NCBI GenBank assembly: GCA_043754515.1
Contig: JAYUUO010000143.1
Coordinates: 1 to 37,150 of the forward strand
Length of the DNA: 37,150 nucleotides
Direction of reading: 5' to 3'
Source: Armatimonadota bacterium
GTDB taxonomy: Bacteria > Armatimonadota > Armatimonadia > Armatimonadales > Armatimonadaceae
Made by a program: the position numbers and the translations under genes. Positions 1,445 through 37,099 of this stretch are shown here, one piece after another. Position 1 is the first letter of the stretch. Each line of letters starts with the position of its first letter. Below the pieces are notes generated by a model. It was not told where the DNA came from, did no database searches, and worked only from the letters and a program-made list of their open reading frames with translations.

Positions 1445-3505
1445 ATGAATAACGAACTGACCATCGCCGCCGACCTGTCGCTACCCCTCGAACTCGTGAC
1501 CGAGACGATAGCCATTCTCGCGAAAAAGGGGGCCAGGAAGAGTTATGCCGCCTCGGTGCTCGCGGAGGAGATGCTCGGTGCCGGGGCGCATGTGGTCGTC
1601 ATTGACTCCCCCGGCGTCTGGTGGGGCTTGCGGGCGGGCGCGGACGGCGACCCGGCGGAGGGCCTGCCGATAGTGATCGTCGGCGGCGACCACGCCGACC
1701 TGCCACTCGACCCGTCCCAAGGCGCGGCGGTCGCCGACCTGGTGGTGGTGGAGCGCGTGTCGTGCGTACCCGACGTGCGGCGGCTCCCGCGCCGGGAGGT
1801 GATCCGCTTCCTGACCGCGTTCCTGACCCGACTCTACGAGACGAACCGCGACGCCCTGCACCTGATTGTTGACGAGGCGGACCTCGTGGTGCCGCAGATG
1901 CCCGGCGCGGACGGCCAGCAGCTCCTAGAGGCGATGGATAACATCGTGCGGCGCGGGCGGTCAGCCGGCCTCGGCTGCACCTTAATCACCCAGCGCCCGG
2001 CGGTGCTGAACAAAAACGTCCTGACGCAGGTCGAGGTACTCCTCGCGATGCGTCTGACCGGATCGCCCGACCGCAAGGCCATCGGCGAATGGTTCGCGGC
2101 GCACGGGTCCGACGCCGAGCGCAAGGCGGTCGCGGAGTCGCTGGCGACGCTCGGCGTCGGCGAGGGCTGGTTCTGGTCGCCGAACATCCTGGGGGGCGTT
2201 TTGCGCCGCATCCGGACACGCCGACGGCGCACGTTCGATTCGAGCGCGACCCCGAAGGTAGGCGAGGCGGTACGCGAGCCCCTGGCACTCGCGAACGTGG
2301 ACATGGCGTCGCTCGCGGCACGGTTCGCGTCGCAACTCGACGCGGCGAAAGAGAACGACGTCGAAGTACTGAAGGCGAGGATAGCGGATCTCAAAAGGCA
2401 GGTATTGCTCGCATCGCCTCCGGAGCGCGTCGAAATAGCGGTGAAATCGGCAAAACTCGTTTTGCCTGAGATCGTGGAGCGCATCGTGGAGGTGCCGGTA
2501 CTCGCGGCGGGCGAGGTGGACAGGCTCGGCGATATGCGCGACTCGATGGTGGGCACGGCGAAAGATTTGATGAATATGGCGGGCGAGATCACGGCGCGCC
2601 TCGCCGCGTTCGTACCTTTTGCGGCGTCCCCCTCCGGAGCGGCAGAGAAAGCGGATGCCCCCGCTCCGGTCAGCCCCGCCCCACGGCCACGGCCCACCAG
2701 CAGGCGCGCCGTGATCTCGCCCGTCCTGACCTTAGCGACAAACGATCTTGCTATCCCGCCGACGCAGCCGATGCAGCCGATCAGCCTTTCCTGGGAGGGG
2801 GCGAGAGGCGATCCGCAGCTCACCTCCGGCTCCCAGGATGTGAGCACCGTCACAGGCGGGGGCGATGCCGCTACCAACGATCCAAGCAACGTATTTAGTA
2901 GCAAACGTTACAACGTTACAACGTTACAACGTCCGTTCACCGAGAACCCGTTCGCCTCCGCACGCGAAAATGCTCCGCATTTCTCGGCACCGGAGAAGCC
3001 GCCCCGCGCGATTCCCCTGGATAACTCCCAGAGGAAATTGATCAACGCGCTGGCGTCCTTCGCGGCTCTCGGGGTGCGGTGCGTGTCGCGCGAGAACGCA
3101 GCGACGTGGGCGGGGTATTCGGCGGACGGGGGGCGATTCGCCGCTATCACCCGCGATCTGAAAAAGATGGGCATGATCACATACCCGACTCCGGGGGAAC
3201 TCGCCCTCACCGATGCGGGCGCGGCGGCGGCGGATCCGGTCGTAAGCCGCCCACGCGGGCGGACCTGCACGGGGCGTGGCTGTCCCGCCTCCCCGGTACC
3301 CCAGCAGAGGATGCTCTCCGAGCTGCTGAAAGTCTACCCGAAGGGTCTCACCAGGGACGCGCTCGCGGCGCGGCTCGACCTGTCGTCCTCGGGCGGGAGC
3401 TTCGCGGAGAACGTGCGCGAACTCAAGAACCTGGGACTCGCCGGGTATCCCCGGTCGGGGTCCGTCGCGGCGACACTCCTACTCTTCTCGGAAGGACTCG
3501 CGTAG
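1445..3505 (+). CDS. HerA/FtsK-like (DUF87-type) P-loop ATPase with a C-terminal winged-helix-like region
   Basis: Walker A-like AILAKKGARKSY (degenerate), Walker B LIVDEAD, and RRGRSAGLG..LITQRPA motif typical of HerA/FtsK ATPases. Confidence 0.8.
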   Translation: MNNELTIAADLSLPLELVTETIAILAKKGARKSYAASVLAEEMLGAGAHVVVIDSPGVWWGLRAGADGDPAEGLPIVIVGGDHADLPLDPSQGAAVADLVVVERVSCVPDVRRLPRREVIRFLTAFLTRLYETNRDALHLIVDEADLVVPQMPGADGQQLLEAMDNIVRRGRSAGLGCTLITQRPAVLNKNVLTQVEVLLAMRLTGSPDRKAIGEWFAAHGSDAERKAVAESLATLGVGEGWFWSPNILGGVLRRIRTRRRRTFDSSATPKVGEAVREPLALANVDMASLAARFASQLDAAKENDVEVLKARIADLKRQVLLASPPERVEIAVKSAKLVLPEIVERIVEVPVLAAGEVDRLGDMRDSMVGTAKDLMNMAGEITARLAAFVPFAASPSGAAEKADAPAPVSPAPRPRPTSRRAVISPVLTLATNDLAIPPTQPMQPISLSWEGARGDPQLTSGSQDVSTVTGGGDAATNDPSNVFSSKRYNVTTLQRPFTENPFASARENAPHFSAPEKPPRAIPLDNSQRKLINALASFAALGVRCVSRENAATWAGYSADGGRFAAITRDLKKMGMITYPTPGELALTDAGAAAADPVVSRPRGRTCTGRGCPASPVPQQRMLSELLKVYPKGLTRDALAARLDLSSSGGSFAENVRELKNLGLAGYPRSGSVAATLLLFSEGLA
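2447..2470 (-). repeat. 24-bp hairpin element, family A, in frame in the ATPase gene
   Basis: TCGGCAAAACTCGTTTTGCCTGAG. Its reverse complement shares 22 bp with the copy at 7216-7237. Encodes SAKLVLPE. Confidence 0.75.
2904..2932 (+). repeat. AACGTTAC tandem repeat (3.6 copies), candidate centromere-like site
   Basis: AACGTTAC at 2904, 2912 and 2920. The same 8-mer occurs at 4775, 4783 and 5879. Confidence 0.7.
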
Positions 3506-3596
3506 CGAGACGACCCCGAGCGAGGGATCCTCTTGGGGCTTGTTCCAGGAGAATAGGGACCCGCGCAAAAAAAACCGGGAGTTGCCCGCCGAAGAC

Positions 3597-3625
3597 TTGA
3601 CACGCGTCCCCCGAGATATTATACT
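3597..3625 (+). promoter_or_regulatory. sigma70-type promoter for the AAA/RHH/rep operon
   Basis: TTGACA (3597-3602), 17-bp spacer, TATACT (3620-3625). AGGAGG RBS just before the ATG at 3762. Confidence 0.8.
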
Positions 3626-3631
3626 CCTGTA

Positions 3632-3664
3632 ACCGCAGGTTGTAACTAACTTACAACCTGCGGT
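3632..3664. promoter_or_regulatory. 14-5-14 inverted repeat at the predicted transcription start; candidate operator
   Basis: ACCGCAGGTTGTAA-ctaac-TTACAACCTGCGGT. Its TTACAAC core is shared with the AACGTTAC tandem repeats. Confidence 0.65.
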
Positions 3665-3761
3665 AGCATTCAGAGTATCGGCACACGGCGCGGGGGCTTG
3701 GTACAGAATTCGTTCGTACCGAGCGACGGTTTCCCGCCGCGCGGCCGCCTTAGGAGGAAAC

Positions 3762-4598
3762 ATGGCAGGCTATATCGAGCATTTCGGCCTCAGAATGAAA
3801 CCGTTCGCCACCACGCCGGACCCGCGCTTCGCCTACGGGACGCCGGAGCACCAATCCGCCGTACTCAAGATCCAGTTCACGGTCGAGGAACAACAGGGCA
3901 TGTTCCTGCTTCAGGGAGAAGTCGGCACCGGCAAGACCACTGTAAGCCAGTTCCTGATGAACGACTGGCGCCAGGACAAATCGTTCGCTGTCGCGCACAT
4001 CACCAACCCGTCCGTGCGCACCCCGACGCAGTTTCTGCGGCTCCTTCTGTCGAGCTTCGGCGTCGCGCCGCCGCACCTCCAGTCCGACAACTGGGAGGCA
4101 CTGCGCACGTTCCTCGTCGGTAACCACCGGGACGGGAAGACCACGGTGCTAGTGATAGACGAAGCACAGACCGTGAGCGCGGAGAACATGGAGACGCTCA
4201 CGCACATCAGCAACGAGCAGACCCAGTCGAGCAAGCTGATACAGATAGTGCTCCTCGCGCAGCCGAACATCGCCCGGAAGCTCTCGTACAAGCCCGCTTT
4301 CCGGGACCGGATCGCGAACGGCATGGTGCTGAACCCCCTCTCCCCGGAAGCGTCGGTGGCCCTGCTCCGCTTCCGGCTCACGGTAGCGGGCGGCAACTTC
4401 GACGACCTGTTCCCCGACCCGGCGACGCACCGCCGGATCTACGGGAGTACGAAGGGCGTCCCGAGGCGGCTGTGCATGCTCTGCGACAACGCCCTGCTGA
4501 ACGCCTACGCACGCGGCAAGTCGGTCGTGGACGACGCCACGATCACCGAAGCACTGAACGACCTTTCGTTCAAAGGATGGAAGGATAAATCCGAATGA
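3762..4598 (+). CDS. ExeA/GspA-like AAA ATPase
   Basis: N-terminal YIEHFGLRMKPFATTPDPRF, Walker A GEVGTGKTT, Walker B LVIDEAQ, C-terminal GVPRRLCMLCDNALL, all typical of ExeA-family AAA proteins. Confidence 0.88.
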   Translation: MAGYIEHFGLRMKPFATTPDPRFAYGTPEHQSAVLKIQFTVEEQQGMFLLQGEVGTGKTTVSQFLMNDWRQDKSFAVAHITNPSVRTPTQFLRLLLSSFGVAPPHLQSDNWEALRTFLVGNHRDGKTTVLVIDEAQTVSAENMETLTHISNEQTQSSKLIQIVLLAQPNIARKLSYKPAFRDRIANGMVLNPLSPEASVALLRFRLTVAGGNFDDLFPDPATHRRIYGSTKGVPRRLCMLCDNALLNAYARGKSVVDDATITEALNDLSFKGWKDKSE

Positions 4599-5203
4599 GT
4601 CTGGTCATGCCCAAGCGCGGCGGCGCGGCGATCGCGCTCGCCGAACTCAACGCGGAACACGCCCCCCGCGAAAATCCCGCAGCGGATGCCCCGAGCGAGT
4701 ATTCCTTACCACCCCCCGCAGGCGAGGTTCCCACGCCCGGCGCACGCGGGAGGAGCCCTCGAAACTTGGTAACGAACGTTACAACGTTACAAGATTCTAA
4801 CGATTCTTATACCGATACAACGAACGTTTCAACGCCCGAAGTGTCGGGCGTTCGTGAGGGCGAACGCACAAACGGGGAACAATCGTGGCGATTTTCCGGC
4901 GCGGGGGCGGGTGTCACGGGGGGAGAAAAGACCGCATGGGACAACTTCTCGGAGCGCGGGATCCGCGCCCGGAAGGCGATCCAAATAGCCGACGACGACG
5001 AGAAGCAGGGCGACATCGCCGTGGTCACGATCCGGGTCTCCGCGAGACTCGCCCGCTACATGGATCAGTACACGTCGCGGCGTAGCGAGACCGACCCGAA
5101 AGGGGCGCGCAAGTACCGGAAGCAGGACGCCGTCGCCGAGGCGTTCGCCGCGTTCTACGCCGATCACGTCATGCCGCCGGCACCGGCGGGGGAGGAACTG
5201 TAA
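4595..5203 (+). CDS. Small protein with a disordered N-terminus and a C-terminal ribbon-helix-helix-like domain (ParG/CopG-like adaptor candidate)
   Basis: ATGA overlap with the upstream gene. The C-terminus VVTIRVSARLARYMDQY...KQDAVAEAFAAFY fits a beta-alpha-alpha pattern. Confidence 0.6.
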   Translation: MSLVMPKRGGAAIALAELNAEHAPRENPAADAPSEYSLPPPAGEVPTPGARGRSPRNLVTNVTTLQDSNDSYTDTTNVSTPEVSGVREGERTNGEQSWRFSGAGAGVTGGEKTAWDNFSERGIRARKAIQIADDDEKQGDIAVVTIRVSARLARYMDQYTSRRSETDPKGARKYRKQDAVAEAFAAFYADHVMPPAPAGEEL

Positions 5204-6271
5204 GTGGGCAATTCAGAGAAGCCGCCTCCACACACAATTTGCGGCAGTTTTGTGGAACAGGCGAAACGAGTTTCGCTAGGTCGAGCGGCTTTCTTGAGCG
5301 ACCCGGACAAAGTTCCACCGGGGAAACCACGCCGCGATTTCGCCGGGTTCCAGCCGCTGGAGGCGAACTTTACCCCGACCCCCAACGCCTTTTTCGACAA
5401 GGTGATGGGACACTACCCGCTGCGCGTCGTGTCCGTGGTCGCCATCCTGATCCGCGCGACAAGCGGGTGGCGCGACTCGGTGACGGGGGAGAAGCGCGTC
5501 GAGGCGGAGCTGGCGCTGAGCGATTTCGTCCGCCCGGAGTTGTCCCTGAACTCCGCGCGGCAGGGGATCCGGGAGGCGATAGCCGCCGGGTTCGTGGTCG
5601 AGACCGCCGCCCCGACCAACCGCGACGGCACGCGGTACGCGCTCCGCTGGGCGGACGACGGCGCACTCAGGACCGCCGTCGAGCGTCAACGCAGGGCGAA
5701 CGGCGACGCGCGGGAGCTGTCCGGCGCGTTGTTCTCGTGTGTTTCCGGGGATCCGACATCTGGACCTCCAATATCTGGACCCCCACGATTTGGGGGTCCA
5801 AAATCCGCACCCCCTATATATAAAGAAACGTTCTCTGGAAAAGAAACCGTTAGTTCTAACGTCTTAGAGAAACCGTTGAACGTTACGCAAACCGACATAG
5901 ACCGGCTTCTGACTCGGGGGGGAACGTTCAACGGCGAGGACAGAGATATGTATAACAACCTGGTGATAGGACCGGTACGAGAAATCATCAGTCTCACGGC
6001 CGACGGCAAGAGCGCGTCCCGCTTCGTCCAGCTCCGAGAGATCTGTTTGCGCACGGAGACGCTCGCGGCGTGGTCCGCCGCGCTCACCGGACTCCGGAGT
6101 CGTTGCGCCACGCCGACGGCGCGTAAGGTGGGCAAGCCCGGCGCGTGGTTCAACGTCGCGTGCGTCAAGGAACTCGAGAAGCGGGGCGTGATCGTGCCGA
6201 GCCGGGCGGACGAAGGGGAGCGCGACGAGGTGCGCGGCATGATCGCGGAGTCGCTGGGGATGGGCGAATGA
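5204..6271 (+). CDS. Putative replication initiator (phage O/RepA-like winged helix)
   Basis: N-terminal NFTPTPNAFFDKVM..ILIRATSGW motif of phage replication proteins, a central iteron-encoded low-complexity stretch, and C-terminal KPGAWF. Confidence 0.72.
   Translation: MGNSEKPPPHTICGSFVEQAKRVSLGRAAFLSDPDKVPPGKPRRDFAGFQPLEANFTPTPNAFFDKVMGHYPLRVVSVVAILIRATSGWRDSVTGEKRVEAELALSDFVRPELSLNSARQGIREAIAAGFVVETAAPTNRDGTRYALRWADDGALRTAVERQRRANGDARELSGALFSCVSGDPTSGPPISGPPRFGGPKSAPPIYKETFSGKETVSSNVLEKPLNVTQTDIDRLLTRGGTFNGEDRDMYNNLVIGPVREIISLTADGKSASRFVQLREICLRTETLAAWSAALTGLRSRCATPTARKVGKPGAWFNVACVKELEKRGVIVPSRADEGERDEVRGMIAESLGMGE
5213..5296 (+). mobile_element. 84-bp composite hairpin element (family B shell holding E and A units), in frame at the rep 5' end
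   Basis: TCAGAGAAGCCGCC...GCGGCTTTCTTG. The 57-bp interior is the exact reverse complement of the interior of the copy at 12633-12716. Confidence 0.85.
5747..5935. other. Candidate replication origin inside the rep gene (iterons plus AT-rich tract)
   Basis: ATCTGGACCTCCA (5758), ATCTGGACCCCCA (5773), inverted TGGGGGTCCA (5791) and ATCCGCACCCCCT (5803) at about 15-bp spacing, followed by AT-rich 5815-5870. Layout resembles the lambda O origin. Confidence 0.62.
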
Positions 6272-7095
6272 ACACACCGAACGAACTGACGGCATGCGGG
6301 ACGGCCGGATCTTCTTCCATCCGTCCTCGCCTGTTATCCGTGGAGAAGGCAATGACAAGGGAAAAACGTCCCGCTTGTTTCGTACCCAACAAATTACAGA
6401 TGGAGTATCTGCGCGGAGCCTGCGAATCGCCAACCGGCGAGATCGCCGAGTTCACATATCGCGCCTCGGGCCGGAACTTCGCCGCGCTGGAAAAACGCCG
6501 CGTTTCGAGAAAAACCGCGGCGGTTTTCTCTTGTTCCCTAGATGCTCTGGTGGATGCGGGATTCCTGCTCCCCGCCCCGTGCGCCGACACGGACGACTAC
6601 CTGGCCCGGTACCGGATCACCGAACCGGGGCGCGAAATAGTCCGCGAGAAGGACGCCCGCGAGCGTGTCCTGACTATCAACATGGACGGCGGGCCGACCG
6701 GTGGCACTGTCGAATGGTCGCCCGCCGCGCCTGCCGACCCGCTCTGGTGGGAGTTCACGAGTTACGGAGACGGCACGGGGCACTACCTAGCGGCGCGCGC
6801 GGGACGTTCTTACCGGATCGACTTCCCGGTGATCACGGGCGAAGTGGCACCGAAGGTGCGATTATGGCTGATCTGCTGGCGGATACGGGACAAATGGGCC
6901 GCCCGTTTTCCCCCGTACTACGATCCCCGGCAGACGGAAGGGAGACGCGTCGCGCCGATACTCGCCGGGGCGAAGGAGGTCTGCCGTGTCCACGCCCTGA
7001 CGGGCGTGTGGACTGACGAGCCCGTGGATGTTGAGCGACTGGTCGGCGGCTCGCCTGCCGGGACTTCCGCCGGTGACGGCGCGGGGGCTGGGTAG
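6268..7095 (+). CDS. Hypothetical protein
   Basis: ATG at 6268 overlaps the rep stop (ATGA). Carries in-frame hairpin elements at 6358-6381 and 6489-6537. Confidence 0.6.
   Translation: MNTPNELTACGTAGSSSIRPRLLSVEKAMTREKRPACFVPNKLQMEYLRGACESPTGEIAEFTYRASGRNFAALEKRRVSRKTAAVFSCSLDALVDAGFLLPAPCADTDDYLARYRITEPGREIVREKDARERVLTINMDGGPTGGTVEWSPAAPADPLWWEFTSYGDGTGHYLAARAGRSYRIDFPVITGEVAPKVRLWLICWRIRDKWAARFPPYYDPRQTEGRRVAPILAGAKEVCRVHALTGVWTDEPVDVERLVGGSPAGTSAGDGAGAG
6489..6537 (+). repeat. Nested hairpins: 27-bp family C-like unit inside a family D unit, in frame
   Basis: GGAAAAACGCCGCGT[TTCGAGAAAAACCGCGGCGGTTTTCTC]TTGTTCC. Confidence 0.7.
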
Positions 7096-7100
7096 GCATA

Positions 7101-8279
7101 ATGCACTGTTATGGGAACCTAGAAACCCGCGAAACCGCACCCCAAGCCGGGCCGACCAAGCCGGGCGTCCCCAGGCCGGACCCCGGCGCGGGCGAAAATG
7201 CCGCATTCGGGACAACAGGCAAAACGAGTTTTGCCGATGCCGCGTTTTCCCTTGTCGCGGGTCCGTCGCCGCTCCTTCCGGACGCGCCCCGCGTCGTCGA
7301 TGAGATCCTCCTCCAGGTCACGCGCGGCTACAAGGCCGGTGCCCGTTCGGGGAGCACCCAGAACGCCTATGGGAGCGACTGGCGGCACTTCGCCGCCTGG
7401 TGCGCCGCGGGCGGCTACGAGCCCCTCCCCGCCGAGCCGCAGACCGTGGAGTTCTACCTCGCCGACCACGCCCCCAGCGGGCGGCCCGGCTCGCTCTCCC
7501 TCTCCACCCTGAGCCGCCGCCTGGTCGGGATCGCCCACGCTCACCGCGAGGCGGGGTACGAGAGCGCGACGGCGGCGCGCTCCGTGCGCGATACCCTCCA
7601 GGGCATCCGCCGCGCCGCGGCCGACGGCGGGCGGGCCGGCGTCCGGCAGGCGACCCCGATCCTGATCGAGGACCTGCGCGAGATCCTGGGGGCCCTCGCG
7701 GTGCGCGTCGCGGCGGCGGGCACTTCCCCCGCCCGTCTCCTCCCGCTCCGCGACCGGGCGATGCTGCTCTTCGAGTTCTCGTGCGCCCTGCGCGCCGGGG
7801 AGGTGGGGATGCTGAACGTCTCCGACCTGCGCGAGGTGGGCAGGAAGGGCTACATCGTCACGCTGCGCCGCTCGAAGACGGACCAGATGGCGAAGGGGGC
7901 GCAGATCGCGGTGGCGCACGGTGCGAACCCGGGGACGTGCCCCGTGATCGCGCTGCGGGAGTGGCTCGGGGCGGCGGGGATCACGTCGGGCCCGCTGTTC
8001 CCGCGCGTGGACCGGCACGGCAACGTGGGCAAGATCGGGATCACCCGCAAGGGGATAACGATCGCCGTGAAACGCGCGGCGCGGTACGCGGGCCTGGACC
8101 CGTCGGGCTACTCCGGACACTCGCTGCGCGCCGGCCTCGCGACGTCCGCCGCCTTGATGAACGCGCCGTACGCCAAGATCAAGGAGCAGGGTCGTTGGAA
8201 GAGCGACCGGGTACTCGGCAGGTACATCCGCGACGCCGAACTGTTCCGCGACAACGCCGCGACCAGCACCGGCCTGTGA
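7101..8279 (+). CDS. Tyrosine recombinase, Cre-like subfamily (start uncertain)
   Basis: STQNAYGSDWRHF N-terminal domain, RDRAMLL..ALRAGE (Arg I), RSKTDQ (Lys), YSGHSLRAG (H-x-x-R), GRW..VLGRY (Trp and catalytic Tyr). Confidence 0.92.
   Translation: MHCYGNLETRETAPQAGPTKPGVPRPDPGAGENAAFGTTGKTSFADAAFSLVAGPSPLLPDAPRVVDEILLQVTRGYKAGARSGSTQNAYGSDWRHFAAWCAAGGYEPLPAEPQTVEFYLADHAPSGRPGSLSLSTLSRRLVGIAHAHREAGYESATAARSVRDTLQGIRRAAADGGRAGVRQATPILIEDLREILGALAVRVAAAGTSPARLLPLRDRAMLLFEFSCALRAGEVGMLNVSDLREVGRKGYIVTLRRSKTDQMAKGAQIAVAHGANPGTCPVIALREWLGAAGITSGPLFPRVDRHGNVGKIGITRKGITIAVKRAARYAGLDPSGYSGHSLRAGLATSAALMNAPYAKIKEQGRWKSDRVLGRYIRDAELFRDNAATSTGL
7214..7237 (+). repeat. 24-bp family A hairpin nested in a family D remnant
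   Basis: AACAGGCAAAACGAGTTTTGCCGA flanked by TCGGGAC and TGCCGCGTTTTCCC. Confidence 0.7.
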
Positions 8280-8327
8280 CGGACGCGCCGCGTGGATGCC
8301 ACTGACGCTCTCGAGCGGGGAAATAAA

Positions 8328-8480
8328 AGGCGAGAATCGCCCGCGCGGAGGAAATCGGCAAAATACTTTTGCCTGTACGCGGCGTTCCGGCAGATCGGCG
8401 AAACGAGACAGGTGAAGACGAGTCTTCACCGATTTGCCTGTCTTCGTGGAAAAACGCGGCGTTTGTTCCGTCTCGCCTGT
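8328..8480. repeat. Intergenic cluster of nested hairpin elements (families A and D)
   Basis: A at 8355-8376. A inside A: TCGGCGAAACGAGA[CAGGTGAAGACGAGTCTTCACCGA]TTTGCCTGT at 8395-8441. D at about 8448-8470. Outer arms AGGCGAGA and TCTCGCCT. Confidence 0.8.
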
Positions 8481-8575
8481 GTTCCGATTACCGAGTCTGG
8501 CACGGTATTTGCTGTATAATCTGCGCACGTCTCCCAAATTATTATATTGATTGCGAAGCACACACCGGAAGGGGC

Positions 8576-8675
8576 CATCGGGCGATCAGTGAAAACTCGT
8601 TTTCACCTGATCGGCAAAAGCGGCTGAGAGAGATGTCCCATCTTCTCGATTTGCCTGAGTAGATTTCGCCCGATG
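8576..8675. repeat. Intergenic nest of hairpin elements (A, and C inside A)
   Basis: Outer arms CATCGGGCGA and TCGCCCGATG. A at 8586-8609. TCGGCAAAAGCGGCT[GAGAGAGATGTCCCATCTTCTCGA]TTTGCCTGAG at 8611-8659. Confidence 0.8.
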
Positions 8676-8704
8676 ACTCCTCTCCCACGGAGGCCTGTAT
8701 CAGG

Positions 8705-9115
8705 ATGGTCGTTCGTTTCAACACTGTATCGCTGACGCTCAAAGACGTTCTCTCCGGGCTGACGCGGCGGACCCAGTCGCCCGCCCGGAGCGGCAAGCTC
8801 GCCGACCCGCCCCCCTACATCGCGCCCGACTCCAGGCACTTCCGCTACGCCTCCTTCATCGCCGCCGGCATGCCCTACGACGAGGCTTGCCGGGAAGTCT
8901 GTGCCAGCCCGCGCACCGCCGAGAGGTGGCGCACCGATCTGCGCGAGGTGGCTTGCCGCTACTTCCGCCGCCGCGTCACCTACGATTTCGCCGCAAGGTA
9001 CGTAGTGGACGCGGAATTGCGCCGCGTCTGCGCCGAGGTGGCCCCCAAAGAACCCACGACCGTAGTGGTCGCGGACAAAAACTCGTCGCCATCGAGTTCA
9101 GGTTGCGACTGCTAG
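8705..9115 (+). CDS. Small HTH-containing protein, possible regulator
   Basis: GMPYDEACREVCASPRTAERWRTDL resembles a helix-turn-helix. GGAGG lies upstream. Confidence 0.55.
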   Translation: MVVRFNTVSLTLKDVLSGLTRRTQSPARSGKLADPPPYIAPDSRHFRYASFIAAGMPYDEACREVCASPRTAERWRTDLREVACRYFRRRVTYDFAARYVVDAELRRVCAEVAPKEPTTVVVADKNSSPSSSGCDC

Positions 9116-9170
9116 GCGGAGCGAGGATCCGTGAATACGTCCTATTCCTTATCCCGAGTTGAAAATAGAT

Positions 9171-9203
9171 GCGCGGAATCCCGCGCGGCGCGGGATTCCG
9201 CGC
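9171..9203. repeat. Perfect 15-3-15 GC-rich hairpin; possible terminator or hairpin element
   Basis: GCGCGGAATCCCGCG-cgg-CGCGGGATTCCGCGC followed by TTGTTT. Confidence 0.6.
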
Positions 9204-9321
9204 TTGTTTCCGCATCCGATCCACCCCACAATAGTGTAGCAGGCAGAATCTGTTGTGGAGGTCCGCTCCTCCCGTGTTGGGAGACTGAGGGGAAGCGGAC
9301 CCCCAACAAGGGAAAAAGTGT

Positions 9322-9393
9322 CGCGGGTTAGCTCAGGGGTAGAGCGGAAGACTCATAATCTTCAGGTCGGGAGTTCGAGACTCCCATCCGCAC
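9322..9393 (+). tRNA. tRNA with CAT anticodon (Met or Ile2), no encoded CCA
   Basis: Cloverleaf: acceptor CGCGGGT/ATCCGCA, D arm GCTC/GAGC, anticodon stem GAAGA/TCTTC with CT-CAT-AA loop (CAT at 9354-9356), T arm GGGAG-TTCGAGA-CTCCC. Confidence 0.9.
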
Positions 9394-9630
9394 TCGCATA
9401 GAAAACGGTCGCCGCGCCCGCGTTCGACGACCGACCGACCCGGCGGGACTGTCGTCCCGCCGCACGGAGAGGGAAGTGGCGGAACTTCCGGTCAGGAAAT
9501 AGTCCCTGACCGGGCCGCCTACGAATCCTCGATACCTATAGCGGGAGCCGCATCGGCTCCGCGCGATTTGCTTCCGAACGTCCAACCGGTTTCTCTGTCC
9601 AGACAGAACCACGTTCCCACCCCCATTCAA

Positions 9631-9744
9631 AGAAACAGCAACCGTCGAGACAAGACAGGCGTACAGGCAAAACGGAGTCAGGCAAAAGGATTTTGCCGAG
9701 TTGCCGAGAACAAGTTTCTGCCGATTTGACGGTTGCTGTTTTCT
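9631..9744. repeat. Triple-nested family A hairpins inside an outer inverted repeat
   Basis: Three ACAGGC/TCAGGC left ends (9655, 9663, 9678) are closed by three GCCGA right ends (9699, 9707, 9724). Outer arms CAGCAACCGTC and GACGGTTGCTG. Confidence 0.8.
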
Positions 9745-9894
9745 CGCACCGAGGTTCCTACGATGAGTGCGCGCGCCAGATTTAAAGAACAAGACTCCTA
9801 TATACGCGGCCAGAAACCGCTCACTGCCGGTTCCTCGCGCAAGCGTAACCCCCTCTGTCGTGCCGTCATAAGGCGATTCAGCGGCGTCCGCGCG

Positions 9895-10059
9895 ATGGCC
9901 TGCGAGGCACTGGGTCTGCGCTACGTCGCCGTCGCCGCCCCGCGCGACCTGAACCAGCTCCGCGCCGCGGCCGCCTTCGCGCCGGACGCCATAGACAGAG
10001 GCATCCGCAGCTACATCCCCTGGTCCTATGAGATCCAGGGCATCGGAGACGTCGCATGA
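9895..10059 (+). CDS. Small hypothetical protein (start uncertain)
   Basis: Short ORF with high GC at third codon positions. Confidence 0.35.
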   Translation: MACEALGLRYVAVAAPRDLNQLRAAAAFAPDAIDRGIRSYIPWSYEIQGIGDVA

Positions 10060-10264
10060 AAAACGGATCCTTTTCCGCCGTTATCGCTGTTCTGGTGGCC
10101 TCCATCGGCATAGCGTCGCAGGTTCGCTCGCCGTCTATCGGGTCTAACGTGATCCTCGCCGCGACCCCCAGATTCTGCTATGGTAGCCGCGCGAAGCGGC
10201 GCGGCCTGTCCGGCCAGGCGCGTCGGCGCGGCATCGTCGCCCGACGGAAGCGCAGCCGACTCAG

Positions 10265-10621
10265 ATGAATGCAAGCGAAGCGGACGCGATCCGCATTTTC
10301 GCCCCGAACGTCCTGCTCGCCCTCCGCGCCGCTGAACTGCTCCTCACCCGGCGCTCGCGGCTCCGATCCGCCGAGAAGCGGCATTTCGAGCAGGGTGCCT
10401 CCTCCCATTCGGAGTACAGGCGTGCCGTCGCTCAGGAGGACGAATCCGCCAGGGCATTGCGAGAGATGTTGCATCGGGTAGGAGTCCTCCCGGATGTCGA
10501 AAACTGCGGCGGGGAAAAACGCGGCATCTCTCGAAACGAGTTTCGAGATTGTTTCGGTTTGTCGAGTATGGATTTATTCGAGGAAGTAGATCCATCTCCA
10601 CTCCGAGCGGGAACGATCTAA
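10265..10621 (+). CDS. Hypothetical protein with a 69-bp in-frame hairpin nest
   Basis: 118-aa ORF. The nest at 10496-10564 keeps the frame. Confidence 0.45.
   Translation: MNASEADAIRIFAPNVLLALRAAELLLTRRSRLRSAEKRHFEQGASSHSEYRRAVAQEDESARALREMLHRVGVLPDVENCGGEKRGISRNEFRDCFGLSSMDLFEEVDPSPLRAGTI
10496..10564. repeat. Three-level hairpin nest (24+24+21 bp)
   Basis: GTCGAAAACTGCGGC[GGGGAAAAACGCGGCAT[CTCTCGAAACGAGTTTCGAGA]TTGTTTC]GGTTTGTCG. Confidence 0.72.
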
Positions 10622-10683
10622 TTGATTTCGCGAGACAAGCCAGCAAGAACACTGACTTGTTTCGCACCAGATGTAGTCGCCGA

Positions 10684-10736
10684 ACTGCCCCTCTTGATAG
10701 GTAGGAAACTCTTTCCTACCTATCAAGAGGGGCAGT
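10684..10736. repeat. Perfect 25-3-25 inverted repeat
   Basis: ACTGCCCCTCTTGATAGGTAGGAAA-ctc-TTTCCTACCTATCAAGAGGGGCAGT. Confidence 0.9.
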
Positions 10737-11712
10737 GCCGAGCGCGACGAGGCGGAGACCCCGCCTGGCGAGAGACATAAACGGAACTCACGCCCGACAC
10801 GACCACGCATCCACGGGGATTTCTTCTAAGTTCCCGCTCAAGAAAATCGCCAGGGCGATTTCTCTGACACGTTGCGAATCCACGGTCGTGTCGGCGACGG
10901 AAAGTTTGCCAGTGTTCTCTTGTGTCGAATCTTTTCTCGCGGGCAACGACCCGTATTTATTGCATAACGGCGAGTGTCTCGCCTTCCTGACCGCGCTACC
11001 TGCCGCTTCCTGTGACTCGCTCGTGACCGACCCGCCGTATTCGAGCGGGGGGCGCACGGCGGGGGAGCGGACGGGCCGCACCACGACCCAGAAATACATC
11101 CAGACCGATACGAAGCGGCAGTACGTGGATTTCGACGGCGACTCGCGCGACCAGCGCGGGTATCTCGCCTGGTGTGCGCTGTGGCTTTCCGAATGCTACC
11201 GCGTCCTGAAGCCCGGCTCTCCGGCGGTCATTTTCACGGACTGGCGGCAGTTGCCGGTCACAACGGACGCGCTCCAGGCGGGCGGCTTCACCTGGCGGGG
11301 GATATGTGCGTGGGACAAGACGCGCGGCTGCCGACCGACGCGCGGGCGGTTCGCGTCCCAGTGCGAGTACATGGTCTGGGGTAGCAAGGGGGCGATGCCG
11401 GCAGACCGGGACGCGCCCTGTTTGGACGGAGTGTTCACCCACCCGGTCAAAGCCGCCGACAAACACCACGTCACAGGGAAGCCGAGCGACCTTCTTCGCG
11501 AGATCGTCCGCATCACCGAGCGACCTACGGAGGCTCATGTACCCGTCATCCTAGACCCGTTCGCGGGATCGGGCACGACCGGCGTCGCTGCCATAGAGAA
11601 TGGGTTCCGGTTCATCGGCTGCGAGTGGGGCGCGGAGTACGCGGCCATCGCGAACGGGCGACTGGCGGACGCGGCGGGACGTCTGGCGGTGGATAGCGGA
11701 GGCATTGCATGA
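10735..11712 (+). CDS. Orphan DNA methyltransferase, N6/N4 beta class (true start probably downstream, about 10889-10912)
   Basis: Catalytic TDPPY precedes the SAM-binding motif ILDPFAGSGTTG. H-x-T-x-KP motif present. Confidence 0.92.
   Translation: MPSATRRRPRLARDINGTHARHDHASTGISSKFPLKKIARAISLTRCESTVVSATESLPVFSCVESFLAGNDPYLLHNGECLAFLTALPAASCDSLVTDPPYSSGGRTAGERTGRTTTQKYIQTDTKRQYVDFDGDSRDQRGYLAWCALWLSECYRVLKPGSPAVIFTDWRQLPVTTDALQAGGFTWRGICAWDKTRGCRPTRGRFASQCEYMVWGSKGAMPADRDAPCLDGVFTHPVKAADKHHVTGKPSDLLREIVRITERPTEAHVPVILDPFAGSGTTGVAAIENGFRFIGCEWGAEYAAIANGRLADAAGRLAVDSGGIA
10838..10867 (-). repeat. Family B hairpin element
   Basis: TCAAGAAAATCGCCAGGGCGATTTCTCTGA, the reverse orientation of the TCAGAGAAATCGCC..GGCGATTTTCTTG consensus. 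Confidence 0.8.
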
Positions 11713-12120
11713 CCTCCTTTTCGTTCCACGCGGGCGATTCGCTCGCCGTCTTGCGCACGTTCCCCGATGAGTCCGTCCATAGCATCGTCACGTCGCCGCC
11801 TTACTTCGCTTTGCGCGACTACCAGGTCAACGGGCAGATCGGCCGCGAAGCGACGCCCGGCGCGTACATAGCGGCCCTGGTCGCCGTGTTCCGGGAGGCC
11901 AGGCGCGTCCTGCGCAAGGACGGCACCCTATGGCTCAACTTGGGGGACAGCTACGTAAACAAGCAGCTCCTCTGCATCCCGCACCGCGTCGCGATGGCAC
12001 TCCAGGACGACGGGTGGCTCCTGCGTTGCGACGCGATCTGGGAGAAGCCGAACGCCTGTCCCGAGTCGGTGGGGGACCGCCCTAGCCGCTCCCACGAGTA
12101 CGTATTCCTGTTCGCCCGGT

Positions 12121-26367: not shown

Positions 26368-26418
26368 TCACACAAACTGCGGCACTTTAGTGGATCACAA
26401 ACACGAGCGTTTTGTGGG
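26368..26418. repeat. Two tandem family E-like hairpins (27 + 24 bp)
   Basis: TCACACAAACTGCGGCACTTTAGTGGA followed by TCACAAACACGAGCGTTTTGTGGG. Confidence 0.62.
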
Positions 26419-26475
26419 TCACACGAACGAGAATACGTTCCGTCTCCCACGAAGAGATCGGCGGAGTAACATCCT

Positions 26476-27129: not shown

Positions 27130-27368
27130 CGGGCCTATCGCCGGACGGCAAGCCCGCGCCGCCGCCCGGACCCGCCAAGGACTTCTCCCGACAACGCGCC
27201 TGGTTCGCGCATCTGTATCCCGGCCTTTCTTTCGCGCTCCTGACCGAGGAGCAGATATTCGCCTACGACCAGCACATGGCGGACATCGCGCGGGCGAACG
27301 CGTCGCTCACCGCCGATCTGCTTTTCGCGCGGTTCGCGCCGCTCTTCGGCCTGCGGATAAATGCTTAG
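27114..27368 (+). CDS. -1 frame extension of the chaperone (GT-like product)
   Basis: CGT TTT ACT at 27112-27120. The -1 frame is open (FYYALTG...GLRINA), matching the conserved G/GT frameshift arrangement. Confidence 0.65.
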   Translation, partial: FYYALTGLSPDGKPAPPPGPAKDFSRQRAWFAHLYPGLSFALLTEEQIFAYDQHMADIARANASLTADLLFARFAPLFGLRINA

Positions 27369-27535
27369 GACAAAGCCGCTTTTGTCCGGACAAAAGCGGC
27401 TGAGTCGGTGTTTCGCCACGAAACACCTGGAGGGCAGTCAAAAGCGGCTTTTGTCGAAGAGGCGATTTTCTTGCCTTCTCGATTTGTCGAATCGGCGAGG
27501 ACTAGTCCTCGCCGGTCTCCCTGTTTGTTCCGGAA
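27367..27535. repeat. Intergenic cluster of hairpin elements before the tape measure gene
   Basis: CAAAAGCGGCT-type units (also at 8615), an A-like unit at 27405-27429, a B right end at 27460-27473, and a palindrome at 27493-27514. Confidence 0.7.
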
Positions 27536-30500: not shown

Positions 30501-32083
30501 TGACGCTCACGGTCGGTAGCGAGGAGAGCGAGACGGACCAGGCGGTGCATGCGGGCCGCGACCGTTACTACGAGAACGAGAACAAGGATAACCCCGACAC
30601 GACCGAGGCATTCGGCAGGCGCGTCCAGGCGTTGCGCGGCTACATCGAGACCGAGGTGCGGAACCTGGAGCAACTGCGCGAGATGTCCGGCAAACAGGCC
30701 GAGTCGCTCGCGGACGTCGGGCGCGAGCGCGACATCGCGAAACAGATCAACGCCAAGCGGATGCAGTTGGCGATGGTCTACCTCCAGGAGATGCTGGCGC
30801 GGATGAACCGGCCGGAGCTCGGCGACCCGGCCGACTCGGGGCACAAGCTCACGGACGCGGTTGCGGCGTCGGACACGCAGGCGAAAAAAGACGGCCTGTC
30901 GCTCGACAAGACGGAGATCGCGGTGCGGGAGCGGCTCGCGGCCGAATCGCTCGGTCGGCGGGCGTTCGGGGACGGGGGCGTGGTGGACGTGCAGATCTTC
31001 CGGGGCCAGTACGACATGGCGCGGCGGCTCACGGACGACATGCGCGAGCGGATCCGCCTCCTCCAAGACGAGGCGCGCGTCGTGTCGGAATACGCGGACG
31101 CACAGGGGAGTAAACTGACGCCCCAGGAGGCGGCGAAGATCCTGTCGGACCTCGCGGCGGAACTGAAGAAGAACCGGGCGTTCCTGGAAGCGAATTCCGT
31201 AGGGGACGCGGCGGACAAACAACGCGAGCGCGTCACCGCCGCGCTCAGACCGATGATCGACGCGCAGGTACAACTCCTGCGCGGGTCGGCGCGGCGGGCG
31301 AGCGACCTCGCGGCGGAGGCACTCACGGGCGGCGCGTCGGAGCGCAGGAACCTCGGCAAGAACCTGGGGGGCGTGGCGACGGAGCTCGGTAAGGATTCGC
31401 TGAAGGACTTCGCGGGGTCGCTCACAGACCAGCTGACCCTGCCTCTGAAAAAGATGGGCGACGACCTCGGGAAGCGTATCGGGGCGGGCGCGGCCAACCT
31501 GCTGAAGTCGGCGGGGCCGAACATCGGCATTGAGATCGGCGGCGCGGCGGTCGGGATCATGAGCATCCTGAACGCGAAGGGGCACAAGAAGACGAACTCT
31601 ATCCTGGGCGGACTGCTCGGCGGCGTCGCGGGCTTCCTTATCGGCGGACCCATGGGGGCGTCGGTGGGGTTCGGGGCGGGGTCGGCGATCGGCGGGGCGT
31701 TCGCGGACGGCGGCGTGGCACCGGCAGGCAAACTGAGCCTGTTCGGGGAGCGCGGGCCGGAGCTTGGCATCCCGGACTCGGCGATGCGGATCCTGCCCGC
31801 CCGCGTCACGGCAGCACTCGCGTCCGGCGACCTGTCCGGCATGCAAGCGAAAATGCCCCATACAGGCAGAAACAAGTTTCTGCCGATGTCGCGGGTTACG
31901 GAGCCGGGCGGTTCACCCGCATCGGGGACGGAAGAAACGCCGCGTTCTTCCACTATCCAGCACATCAGCCTCAACGCCCCCCTGATGCACGTGGAACAGA
32001 TAAACGACCGAACGGATGCGGCCTGGGCGGCGAAGCAGCTCGGCGAGACGCTCGGCGACCGGTTCCGCGCGGCAGGGCACTGA
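27542..32083 (+). CDS. Tail tape measure protein (TP901-like core)
   Basis: 1513 aa, Ala/Gly-rich. DFEKVMTDIR..AATQLQGIM core and C-terminal FADGG..LFGERGPEL. Confidence 0.93.
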   Translation: MSDTTKTLTYRVKADGQSAITSLQAFASSLVGIAKVSPDAARAMKAYNDQVVTNARAQKEVAQGGVLAARTLKEEAGALTNAARARAALSQADLSAARAAKVASDEGRRAATERERSSRSIVALVDKESKSLDAARTREIATQRLVEAEYDAMAKKAQTGYGAVRAELAKTLAVEEKQRAAIAKNATFTPAASVGGGFNLGALGATAGVGVGVGDLVTRLKDFEKVMTDIRGNTDMTDAEFGQMKTSVLDLAATTGAATEDIGRGFMRARNFAFGMADTTRIVEVATKSAVGSGADVNRTAELLASTMHNFGIAGKDALVTMNVLHEGAVLGNMTLEQFTEHAKPVVSLASQLGVSLSDTVSGYVALTRAGYDSAQAATQLQGIMTHIINPSKSAQKEIALLAKTTGVDLAGDFTLAGLKARGFTGVLEDVRKATRGHEDAVLKLIPALRGGIGAMLVTGKGYDDVKDAANKLADVYSGKLDPTTQSFTNQQKTLQGQLANLNQEVTRIVNEEGPAFLSWLTQGAKGVHSLMEEFRDMAPESKKAWEGVGGAAVAVALAVPAIVNLIAWLGKAKDAYVALSLASGGSFLGGAGLGAKGAGLLAGGAGAIATRAGLIAGSGIAGVGIGLAINDRFIGKNDARAAKTDAETDAMNARRGPAYAKFAKTRETLISYREEQALLSGEAARLGKESGESSPQAKDARQQFSLITSRVESLTKQAAADRAAAVKSLAESKKPAKPAKGGLKGPAPHVDTAGGDDAARRKAEAEAKRASEDAAEATRAAAGTRLSNLQKRYKKTLDTLGADAAPEEMPGLKAKLRRLSGDILQAATDAAAAELAKAKVSDPKYLLAAGARQRGEIGRALDEQGERSTEITDAVKKAYVRLRGAAHKAAQKSREERVSLAKDAAEQEQEVLAHMLEVAKKQGLSPEYEDTFRDAVKQAADKLLLARGAAANAEYAKDIGDGKTPEAAKRTQSASYRKARREYDKVTLTVGSEESETDQAVHAGRDRYYENENKDNPDTTEAFGRRVQALRGYIETEVRNLEQLREMSGKQAESLADVGRERDIAKQINAKRMQLAMVYLQEMLARMNRPELGDPADSGHKLTDAVAASDTQAKKDGLSLDKTEIAVRERLAAESLGRRAFGDGGVVDVQIFRGQYDMARRLTDDMRERIRLLQDEARVVSEYADAQGSKLTPQEAAKILSDLAAELKKNRAFLEANSVGDAADKQRERVTAALRPMIDAQVQLLRGSARRASDLAAEALTGGASERRNLGKNLGGVATELGKDSLKDFAGSLTDQLTLPLKKMGDDLGKRIGAGAANLLKSAGPNIGIEIGGAAVGIMSILNAKGHKKTNSILGGLLGGVAGFLIGGPMGASVGFGAGSAIGGAFADGGVAPAGKLSLFGERGPELGIPDSAMRILPARVTAALASGDLSGMQAKMPHTGRNKFLPMSRVTEPGGSPASGTEETPRSSTIQHISLNAPLMHVEQINDRTDAAWAAKQLGETLGDRFRAAGH
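31863..31952. repeat. Two 24-bp hairpin elements in frame in the tape measure gene (A at 31863-31886, D at 31929-31952)
   Basis: CAGGCAGAAACAAGTTTCTGCCGA and CGGAAGAAACGCCGCGTTCTTCCA. Confidence 0.72.
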
Positions 32084-32085: not shown

Positions 32086-32592
32086 ATGACTACGATAATT
32101 ACCGTGCCCGGCAATTCGTTCGCGTGGACGCCCTCCGGGGTGTTCGTCGCGGCGGGGGACTTGCTCCGGGTCTTCGCCACGGGCGCGGTCGCGCCGATCA
32201 GGGGGTCTTCTAACGAATATCCACCCTACGGCGACACCGGGCGGGTAGCGGGGGTACACCCCCGCTACCCGGCGGATGTGAGCGGGTTCGCGGCGTCCGG
32301 CGTCGCTCTTTTCGGCTTGGCCATCGCGGTGAGTGCCGTTGAACCCGTCGCGCAGGTCCATGACGCGGTCATGCCATTTCGCGTCGGCACCACGACCGAC
32401 GGCGAAATCTACTTCGTCGCGGCGTCAACCGGACAGATCTGGCTCAACTTCAACGACACGTACTACGGCGACAACGCCGGATCCTACGTCGCGACGATAA
32501 CAACCGGCATCGCGCTCCCCGCGACACCGATCCTGACCGCGACTGGGCTACTGATCGGCAACGCGCCGCTCATCCGCCTCCGAGCCTATTGA
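32086..32592 (+). CDS. Tail-associated protein with a LecA/PA-IL-like lectin fold
   Basis: W..SGV.V..GD.LRV.ATG at the N-terminus and GQIWLNFND..YGDNAGSY at the C-terminus. Confidence 0.55.
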   Translation: MTTIITVPGNSFAWTPSGVFVAAGDLLRVFATGAVAPIRGSSNEYPPYGDTGRVAGVHPRYPADVSGFAASGVALFGLAIAVSAVEPVAQVHDAVMPFRVGTTTDGEIYFVAASTGQIWLNFNDTYYGDNAGSYVATITTGIALPATPILTATGLLIGNAPLIRLRAY

Positions 32593-33518: not shown

Positions 33519-33604
33519 TTTTGGGGGCAGTCAGCTCAGGTGAAAGAGAAGACCGCGGCGATCTCTCTCCAAACGAGTTTTCACCGAACAGGCTTCCCCT
33601 AAAA
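33519..33604. repeat. Nest of a C-like 27-bp unit inside a 24-bp A unit inside an outer inverted repeat
   Basis: CAGGTGA[AAGAGAAGACCGCGGCGATCTCTCTCC]AAACGAGTTTTCACCGA at 33537-33587. Outer arms TTTTGGGGG and CCCCTAAAA. Confidence 0.75.
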
Positions 33605-36600: not shown

Positions 36601-36983
36601 CGGAAGAAGACGCGTCGGCATTCTACCAGGTGGCGAACTTCAACAGCCATGTCGTCGCGGACTGCTACGGCGGCAACATCAACGTCACTCTTCCGGTGAT
36701 TACCGGCGCGGCGGACGTCGGAAAAACGGTCACCATGGTCCGCCAGGATTCATACGGCGCGAACAGCGGCAAGGTCGTCACCGTGATCGGGGGCGGGCCG
36801 ACCGCGACGCCCCAGACGATCCGGGGCACCCTTGCCCTGCGGCAACTTTCCGGCGACTGGCAGAGCGTGACGCTCCGCTCCGCGCGAGGTGGTAGCACGA
36901 CCGGCTACGAGTGGCACGTCATCTCCAAAACCTACACCGACGCCGGACGCAACTCGCTCAACGTCAACACCTCGGCGGCTTAG
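33612..36983 (+). CDS. Tail tip/hub protein with carbohydrate-binding-like modules and a C-terminal fibre region
   Basis: 1123 aa after Dit. NASFE and NGSLE CBM-like starts; YVGTWDASANTPALASG..WNVGDWIV and VLSVNGQTG tail-fibre motifs. Confidence 0.78.
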   Translation: MSNEATLQVRLYNADNTGYGVLPLSENGSPGVKSASARVTAAEGYADGTLVLTGARRDYPALARRRRVAFYAVYRRRADDAVQTALLYRGVVKRVLPVKGSKGERSLSVKLVGLWSEIGRVRCYKVYPNAEGADRASFFAALAGTFVLPKYPGVAVATGAVGSVPDYVSAYDKTFAEAVATLQQNVGQVATGMDVDPVTGADRLFFRPFDDLSAPARHAIPLPDAQTGRENVEEDGAAQVTVLTIRGGEPRGGGNLLADAVQNNASFEFPELPGSASVGNYLQNGSLETGNFFDEINGGTTKNKSDEGIQPFLGDWYGYLGKPGAALAQSVWSPPSPLAPGRTYRLDLRARLENQSFPVPALALIEWFQGTAISHVALGSVPLAVSPTGATWDLFGINLTPPAGANAFRFSVTRAPSVPGEPTTGNDPYVLFVDDVRFFDPSPITQKGWELFRVGTNVVYNAVDWASDLSPWHNGRCCFFDAVSRDVDGQDCQLRPFGYNRTSVTGGTTLVAGFAVRVTRGAVLTNIGGTVQNGVFTTMTPTLKFQVGIENWATDGHPQGETVTSYVVPADGAWRYVSHTKTIGGDTAQATCRLMMRGEGAYYADAAFLMAADAPFARAVTANTAGFANGTLTSTAMPDPALYVEGKQYRRRYRAVDLFAAGTPIGDEAFAVGEIEATEDLPEVVSDNDALSYARLYFKKFSLPLSRPNLETEGVLETGAASSTAGMMPGESARFLGPDGTELFPSPLSCVEKLVAFEGGKLSITPFFGVEERDPYRSIEEMIRAARLSGTQTGAGSLGGLSGGSGSAGGGYPTAPSPHAASHGVGGTDPITPASIGAEAGANKGVPNGYPGLGPDGKVLAGQLPPSVVGSVTYVGTWDASANTPALASGVGTKGYYYVVAVAGTTAVDGVARWNVGDWIVYDGAKWDKLDGIASEVLSVNGQTGVVMIPAFGGSGAGHGAGLVPDPGPTPGTSRFLREDGAFAVPPSGGAGTFQTTEEDASAFYQVANFNSHVVADCYGGNINVTLPVITGAADVGKTVTMVRQDSYGANSGKVVTVIGGGPTATPQTIRGTLALRQLSGDWQSVTLRSARGGSTTGYEWHVISKTYTDAGRNSLNVNTSAA

Positions 36984-37039
36984 TAACTACTCTCCCAGAG
37001 ATAAATCGCGGGGGCCATACAATCCCCGAGCAGCTCAAT

Positions 37040-37099
37040 TCAGAGAAACCGTCTCTGGCGGTTTTCTTGTCAGAGAAACCGCCAGAGGTGGTTTTCTTG
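37040..37099 (+). repeat. Two head-to-tail family B elements with an exact 30-bp period
   Basis: TCAGAGAAACCGTCTCTGGCGGTTTTCTTG followed by TCAGAGAAACCGCCAGAGGTGGTTTTCTTG. Confidence 0.88.

Follow-up and report, generated by a model that had tools for sequence, protein, structure and literature searches.

Very short hairpins are gained and lost as whole units in an Armatimonadota phage and in its host lineage

How do DNA segments barely longer than a few codons come to be scattered through a phage genome? To our knowledge, the movement of DNA elements of fewer than 30 bases has been an open question since the report of small dispersed repeats (SDRs) in 2008. The question is raised by a 37,150-nucleotide stretch (the window), the whole of contig C143 of an Armatimonadota assembly (G000; 5.13 Mb, 62% GC, 313 contigs, 92.7% complete). 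The window codes for a tailed phage, with a tyrosine integrase, two DNA methylases, terminase, portal, capsid, tail tube and tape measure proteins, and an earlier reading of its sequence (the original prediction) described in it about five families of tiny hairpins as a mobile system of the phage. We find that these hairpins are gained and lost as units and are real mobile elements of the host lineage, likely among the smallest mobile DNA elements. Their attribution to the phage was too narrow, since the same families occur in the host itself, within remnants of insertion sequences (IS), in RHS repeats and in a further repeat of larger size, and also in ordinary gaps between genes of a sister species (G003).

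The hairpins are clearly distinguishable from chance folds. At all 32 coordinates originally listed the motif is present within 0-2 bases, in 24 cases as an intact copy, in five as a copy split by nesting (5213, 6489, 10511, 12633 and 33537) and in three as a decayed or half copy (6358, 16847 and 26368). Perfect hairpins with at least four A/T pairs number 23 in the window outside the CRISPR array versus 1.55 ± 1.28 in 20 codon shuffles, and a genome-wide scan for bulged hairpins yields 87 matches versus one in a shuffle (family A: 66 versus 0). A reversed-sequence control (37 bulge-scan matches) was discarded as invalid because reversal preserves hairpins. Our catalogue holds 201 copies in G000 with cores of 21-32 bases, the boundaries of larger nests being possibly off by a few bases, and comprises more families than the five proposed. 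Family A, held to be uniformly 24 bp, has cores of 21-25 bases, and the E copies listed separately at 5228 and 12675 are two occurrences of a single 54-base composite.

In the genome-wide scan, the bulged families share a common plan, in which an outer stem of short length is followed by one bulged base, an A/T tract and, at the tip, GC-rich sequence; family A differs in its unbroken stem and mismatched end tags. The ends are conserved while stems and loops vary, and the arms of family B accept 54 bases within the loop. Copies nest in each other, as predicted, and nested composites recur as units. Fold strength is about equal on both strands, one B strand folding with G-U pairs. The claimed covariation of stems holds in part. 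With copies chosen by end tags alone and compared with column shuffles, the 28-base core of family B has 87 of 100 cells paired (shuffle mean 69.7; reached in 0 of 1000 shuffles), and the pairing of the family D forms D22 and D26 is reached in 1 and 2 of 1000, but the excess is not significant for the 27-base B core (69 of 1000) or the 24-base family G (88 of 1000). Part of the covariation may reflect template switching rather than selection, since loops are found in both orientations relative to the asymmetric ends. The two arms of a hairpin can, moreover, be rewritten jointly in one step, and for both reasons stem covariation is weaker evidence than claimed.

Gain and loss are seen directly by comparing strains. 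Eleven public sequencing runs hold part of the stretch, four from the likely source population and the others from five further studies; the comparison is made on contigs, covers the window up to 21320 and counts the indels listed there. Runs X8 and X9 derive from independent ice metagenomes. One contig of run X8 (12089-12485, six other letters differing) is without exactly the 30 bases 12120-12149, a family B copy (+ strand) in the second methylase gene, and also lacks 30 bases net at 12266-12297, the site of a second 30-base B copy (12268-12297, − strand), with two changed bases beside the junction. The same contig has one extra base behind 12362, which would join the two methylase frames of the window. 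X8 thus carries an intact, empty methylase allele, both B copies being absent and the frames rejoined. The second methylase gene of the window is itself frameshifted near 12362; a further copy, originally listed at 10838 with 30 bp, is a 29-base B hairpin (10839-10867, −) upstream of the first methylase domain.

Run X9 is without the 27 bases 2960-2986 (+) in the ATPase gene, a bulged hairpin of family I that is new relative to the original prediction; the same contig has one extra unit at 2903 of an 8-base tandem repeat that occupies 2903-2931 and 4775-4795. In the opposite direction, X9 and X10, from two studies, have an extra 24-base D-type hairpin behind 7470 in the integrase gene, where the window presents an empty site (7470-7475, +), and an X11 contig over 7329-7590 shows no gap relative to the window and is likewise empty. 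Empty and filled alleles thus occur in both directions among strains, and the predicted mobility is borne out. Among the indels listed, all four polymorphic hairpin indels in coding DNA keep frame, being multiples of three. The proposed rule that element lengths are mostly multiples of three applies to these but does not extend to paralogous non-coding repeats of G000, with net inserts of 24 and also of 22, 23 and 28 bases, nor to dead transposases of the host, with 29-base inserts. In agreement with the predicted absence of target duplication, B at 12120 leaves at most one ambiguous base; 2960 and 7470 have 4-5 ambiguous junction bases, and a short duplication is possible there.

Paralogues and homologues add further empty and filled sites. 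Two IS605 tnpA paralogues of G002, a genome of the same genus as G000, carry hairpins of different 30-base families at the same nucleotide, both in frame. These two reading frames (L126 and L129) are open despite 10 extra residues directly before what we take to be the catalytic helix. In the proposed comparison with homologous proteins, the peptide encoded by family A in the ATPase faces a 7-residue gap in the two of 10 homologues that align through that stretch. In silico removal of B restores continuous transposase-like frames in most host copies, as judged by eye. Because these homologues are without the A peptide and the frames are continuous after removal of B, the empty state is the older of the two. 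A larger host repeat, present at about 30 sites in G000 (e.g. C59:45 and C156:20177), contains none, one or two nested A copies, and its two-copy form is the most amplified.

Among the genomes searched, the elements are restricted to one Armatimonadota genus. The exact B pattern matches only one other genome in GTDB, also from Armatimonadota (L088, L089), and a looser B pattern matches twice in G002, which is probably that GTDB genome and is counted once. Family A is found 43 times in G000, five times in G003 and once each in four others of 401 genomes of the phylum, these four matches having imperfect stems. Exact patterns of families A, B, D and G have no match in IMG/VR, and GenBank phages yield a single 25-base match, at chance level. 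Searches with the terminase (IMG/VR: 70 loci, none above 50% identity) and the portal (71 genomes of the order: four other genomes, 49-55% identity) gave 75 related loci (1.11 Mb) that contain no strict bulged hairpin, versus eight in the window and 16 on contig C138; with none present, these phage loci were unusable as a source of nucleotide-level empty sites.

Within G000, the 201 copies comprise 81 on 12 phage-like contigs (184 kb; hand-picked, several after proving element-rich), 47 in IS-like DNA (a circular class, drawn from the elements' own surroundings), 34 in the one larger host repeat, six in RHS repeats, 29 in other non-coding DNA and four in 3.74 Mb of called host genes. An independent test used Pfam-defined transposase remnants, 24 rows merged to 19 loci: 12 of the 19 have a copy within 300 bases, versus 1.5% of random 1-kb host windows and 37 of 602 contig-end windows. 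All six metagenome matches of B, and one of the two GTDB matches, lie in or beside transposase-like frames, as judged by eye. The structural gene cores of the window (20,055 bases) hold one of its 25 catalogued copies. Strict targeting of mobile DNA is weakened by the five family A copies of G003, which lie among ordinary host genes, in host gaps, and for the same reason weak selection would explain much of the bias toward mobile DNA. Targeting may nevertheless contribute, since copies are scarce in the short host gaps, which total 375 kb. A CRISPR spacer of the host (G000:C61:2330-2368) runs from a B-hairpin loop to a loop belonging to a different hairpin family, and was likely taken from hairpin-rich invading DNA; further host spacers match contigs C87, C172 and C260.

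The insertion sites follow a loose but measurable rule, CNRN^xNYNG, a 9-base palindrome in which ^ denotes the insertion point and x one base. Of 33 B copies with independent flanks, 28 have C at −4 (p = 2e-10), 29 a purine at −2, 17 A at +1, 29 a pyrimidine at +3 and 16 G at +5. The pattern of 33 family A copies is similar and more even across positions (C at −4 in 17, purine at −2 in 26, pyrimidine at +3 in 23, G at +5 in 18). Junctions are precise to within roughly one base. The B unit opens with a variable base (T 19, G 8, C 3, A 3) that does not regularly copy a target base, and a regular target duplication is thus absent. Both A and B have a C four bases before the 3' end, mirroring the C at −4 of the target. 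A target folded as a small hairpin was ruled out, its halves showing no covariation. The site occurs at frequencies of 0.025 in host, 0.027 in phage and 0.022 in IS DNA and is thus neither avoided nor in excess in host DNA.

With moderate confidence, we read the hairpins as non-autonomous mobile DNA pasted into this loose 9-base site by an enzyme that the host would likely supply. Such an enzyme would recognize the imperfect foot of the hairpin and act by cut-and-join at the DNA level, in the peel-and-paste manner of IS200/IS605, the fold uniting both ends so that one hairpin would serve as both. Conserved ends around variable interiors (even a 54-base cargo), exact junctions and the lack of duplication point to this mechanism. 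The accumulation of copies in dead IS and in the accessory DNA of prophages would be due mainly to selection against them elsewhere, and frame-keeping lengths would survive in genes. As described in the cited part of PMC6006769, IS200/IS605 transposases act in this way on 20-25-base hairpins and treat target and right end alike, and the cited part of PMC8266576 reports that the bulge matters to one TnpA-REP group. An HUH Y1 transposase acting in trans is the best single candidate class for the mobiliser, though a tentative one. A host type IA topoisomerase is a lesser and unlikely candidate; bacterial topoisomerase I favors C at −4 of the cut (PMC3467081, in the part cited), a preference in agreement with the target as well as with how A and B end at their 3' side.

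Several observations weigh against this proposal. No mobiliser was found in G000, whether as an autonomous copy or as a hairpin-flanked transposase; the four Y1 transposase matches (three loci) are weak or broken and without flanking hairpins, and the suggested search of the host for HUH, RAYT or reverse transcriptase genes flanked by the elements found none flanked by or near copies in G000. That assembly is fragmented into its 313 contigs, so a multicopy transposase could be missing from it; G002 has 16 Y1 transposase matches. A search for autonomous split-arm forms finds no pair of arms that brackets a gene, the ends of one aligned G002 IS605 pair are unlike the elements, and no circle junction is seen in assembled contigs. 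Recognition of the site extends to either side of the junction, a feature that fits a dimer on double-stranded DNA better and argues against a single-strand HUH or topoisomerase cut in its simple form. The two halves of the site do not covary, and families D, C, G and H follow the site rule weakly or not at all. Each polymorphism among strains is a single contig per run at a depth of 2-5, and most bridged sites are unchanged between strains (e.g. X5 over 8239-8692).

A doubtful alternative dispenses with a dedicated enzyme. Template switching or short-homology recombination at replication, helped by phage recombination proteins, would generate the copies, which would then spread through gene conversion and whenever the IS, RHS and larger repeats carrying them are amplified. 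Base changes beside some inserts (12268; nested A) are consistent with this, loop inversions and arm rewriting indicate that such switching acts on these hairpins, 34 of the 201 copies lie within one larger host repeat and six in RHS repeats, and no mobiliser has been found. However, the site consensus is non-homologous to the element ends and common to two unlike families, two families occupy the same nucleotide in paralogues, and the ends have stayed asymmetric and bulged, whereas switching would be expected to make them perfect.

We are similarly doubtful that the hairpins are hyperparasites of mobile DNA, gene-less elements placed mainly into phage and IS DNA by a housekeeping enzyme of the host or by some cut-and-join protein not yet described. 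Insertion would then take place while DNA is incoming, extrachromosomal or unwound, and the cell would slowly tag and cripple its parasites. If so, the C that precedes both junctions by four bases would suggest an enzyme present in all cells, such as topoisomerase I, and it would be explained why SDR-type elements have no mobiliser gene of their own.

Capture of free hairpins at breaks is unlikely. Here a host nuclease with a preference for DNA that is incoming or unmodified would cut at the loose palindrome, and repair would ligate a free hairpin oligomer into the break. The two-sided palindromic site with its off-centre junction fits such cutting, as does the strong bias to phage and IS DNA, and SDR5 offers a parallel, inserting between the third and fourth base of HIP1 with directed cutting proposed, in the cited part of PMC4390886. 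Nevertheless, restriction sites are far less degenerate than this site, which is about equally frequent in host, phage and IS DNA, the source of free hairpins is left unexplained, and the G003 copies lie in host gaps.

An RNA route, in which the hairpins would be transcribed, copied by a reverse transcriptase and integrated, is more improbable again. G000 has two reverse transcriptase genes, and at least one is present in three of four genomes of the genus; one B strand, moreover, folds with G-U pairs. Yet neither G000 gene lies near catalogued copies, G003 has family A and no reverse transcriptase match (in a genome that is 82% complete), both strands fold about equally, and copies sit in genes in both orientations. 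In one G000 locus (L125, G000:C197:29307-30862) a reverse transcriptase gene is followed by a small partner gene, an arrangement that is presumably diversity-generating retroelement-like. Finally, a role as functional phage parts under selection (terminators, processing or binding sites) is very improbable, for although a number of copies fit a terminator-like pattern (29 sites versus 14.9 ± 4.3 in shuffles over 1400-21000), the hairpins are missing in close strains, lie within genes in both orientations, nest in themselves and sit in dead host IS, and the empty alleles largely refute it.

Insertion as non-autonomous mobile DNA remains our preferred account, and the further copies in the window are described here by position. 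A family A hairpin (2447-2468, −) lies in frame in the HerA-like ATPase gene (1445-3505), adding 7-8 residues. This gene looks decayed, in that the glycine of its Walker A motif is altered and the frame is lost for about 18 codons near 3245-3300; together with the frameshifted second methylase, the ATPase defects mark the accessory region as decaying. A B hairpin holding the 54-base composite of E and an A-like element in its loop (5213-5296, +) supplies the 28 codons that start a putative replication open reading frame (ORF), and the same composite, inverted relative to the outer ends, is held by the B copy at 12633-12716 (+). Family D, split by a 27-base family C hairpin (6489-6537, +), is in frame in ORF 6400-7095; another D copy, at 6887-6912 (−), was absent from the original prediction. 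The N-terminal extension of the integrase contains a family A copy nested in a D-type hairpin (7216-7237, +). Two intergenic clusters, catalogued without strand, comprise A (8355-8375), A inside another A (8409-8432) and D (8448-8469) at 8355-8469, and an A variant followed by A split by family C (8626) at 8587-8655. Three mutually nested A copies occupy 9655-9725 (+), the inner two recurring at 21467 with 95% identity, and a triple nest at 10496-10565 (+), with G outermost, D in the middle and a further family at 10529-10548, is also found on contigs C138, C87 and C97.

Further along, a D copy lies near the end of ORF 13129-13755 (13707-13728, −) and an intergenic B copy at 14671-14700 (+). 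The portal gene has a nested cluster of E and C in its N-terminal extension (16840-16940, +; intact C core at 16882) and nested A remnants in its C-terminal tail (18437-18474, +). Three features without assigned strand are the largest intergenic nest, after the capsid gene (21324-21545; A, D, A-in-A-in-A), decayed E-type copies after the tail tube gene (26368-26420) and an intergenic nest before the tape measure gene (27367-27535). The tape measure C-terminus contains, in frame, a family A copy (31863-31886) and an unbulged D-like hairpin (31863-31950, +). Family A split by a 27-base family C insert lies between genes (33537-33587, +), and two B copies stand head to tail with period 30 at 37040-37099 (+). 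Longer perfect hairpins (13-32 pairs), some of them intragenic, fall outside all families (9171-9203, 10684-10736, 13666-13697, 24558-24623 and 32242-32271); the core of that at 24558 is A-like.

The window starts with a CRISPR array, and the same repeat starts contig C138, which carries a full type I-E cas operon plus more phage genes; C143 and C138 are likely one element of about 75 kb. The type I-E CRISPR-Cas locus is thus complete, lies within the phage and spreads over window 134-1322 and G000:C138:1-9707 (L001). One of 19 tested spacers (window 406-438) matches the phage-like contig C97 at 30 of 31 bases. Window 1-74 is a perfect inverted copy of 117-190 in the array and probably results from fold-back during assembly. 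Three 96-base elements, nearly identical to each other, with inverted repeats and TA at either end (window 1336-1431, G000:C138:9834-9929 and G000:C164:9929-10024) we take to be IS630-like MITEs (miniature transposable elements with inverted repeats); two of them flank the CRISPR-Cas locus in the same orientation, in the manner of a composite transposon. A row of genes at window 3762-8279 (AAA ATPase, small partner, putative replication protein, tyrosine recombinase) suggests a phage-plasmid lifestyle. The sole Rfam gathering-score match in the window is a tRNA with a CAT anticodon (9322-9393), and that search assigns no RNA family to the hairpins.

What the case adds is a set of empty and filled alleles known exactly and taken from living populations, together with several families within a single genus and a measurable target rule. 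Sister genomes with and without each family permit a search for the mobiliser by comparison. The hairpins also give rise to insertions of 7-10 residues in phage proteins and transposases, and their bias to mobile DNA is either a map of weak selection or a sign of targeting. In a literature search that left subscription papers mostly outside and supplements unread, no report of such elements came up for Armatimonadota or for a phage.

Rickettsia palindromic elements measure about 100-150 bases. According to the cited part of PMC3733652, they are palindromic non-coding mobile DNA found in frame in genes, as are the hairpins described here. Like the MITEs described in the cited part of PMC11602168 for prokaryote and viral genomes, the hairpins are common to host and virus; unlike prokaryotic MITEs, given as 70-300 bases with terminal inverted repeats (PMC3733652, same part), they have 21-30 bases, asymmetric ends and no duplication. 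With the ends of IS200/IS605, as covered in the part of PMC6006769 cited above, they have in common the absence of target duplication, hairpins of 20-25 bases and a short motif directly 5' of the insert. They differ in having no transposase gene, in the single hairpin that replaces a pair of ends, and in a target that is degenerate and two-sided where IS200/IS605 uses a fixed tetranucleotide. Repetitive extragenic palindromes (REPs) and their REPIN doublets are likewise short, imperfect and often bulged hairpins, non-autonomous, lineage-specific and sometimes intragenic, to the extent covered by the cited parts of PMC3116915, PMC3733652, PMC6006769 and PMC8266576. The REP tag GTAG/GTGG, placed 0-2 bases 5' of the stem in the cited part of PMC6006769, is absent from the flank tables of all our families, and none of the three Y1 loci in the fragmented G000 assembly is flanked by the repeat as a cognate RAYT. 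REPIN doublets, moreover, are extragenic in these sources, whereas here it is the single unit that comes and goes, mostly within genes and mobile DNA. None of the three outcomes that the original prediction named as refuting it arose: empty alleles exist, the polymorphic hairpin indels in coding DNA are multiples of three, and the motifs are without the tag of described REPs.

Of the kinds already known, the SDR of cyanobacteria comes nearest, and the hairpins are a distinct variant of this known but unexplained class. SDR1-8 of the Nostocaceae were reportedly described by Elhai et al. in 2008, at sizes of about 20-30 bases. Three properties of SDR-type elements are found here, namely a dispersed multi-copy unit, filled and empty sites, and compensatory changes in the fold (B28, D22 and D26); the SDR precedent of the original prediction is thus upheld, along with its statement that the mobiliser is unknown. 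As far as the cited parts of PMC2884548, PMC4390886 and PMC5861425 go, SDRs share with the hairpins a size of about 20-30 bases, several families per genome, restriction to a lineage, precise insertion and no known mobiliser, and SDR5 inserts off-centre in a palindrome (PMC4390886), as at the off-centre junction here. Compared with SDRs as those papers describe them, the Armatimonadota hairpins belong to another phylum, probably have other sequences, are directly observed as present or absent between close phage strains, show a strong prophage and IS bias in G000 and enter a degenerate CNRN-x-NYNG 9-mer in place of the HIP1 site of SDR5.

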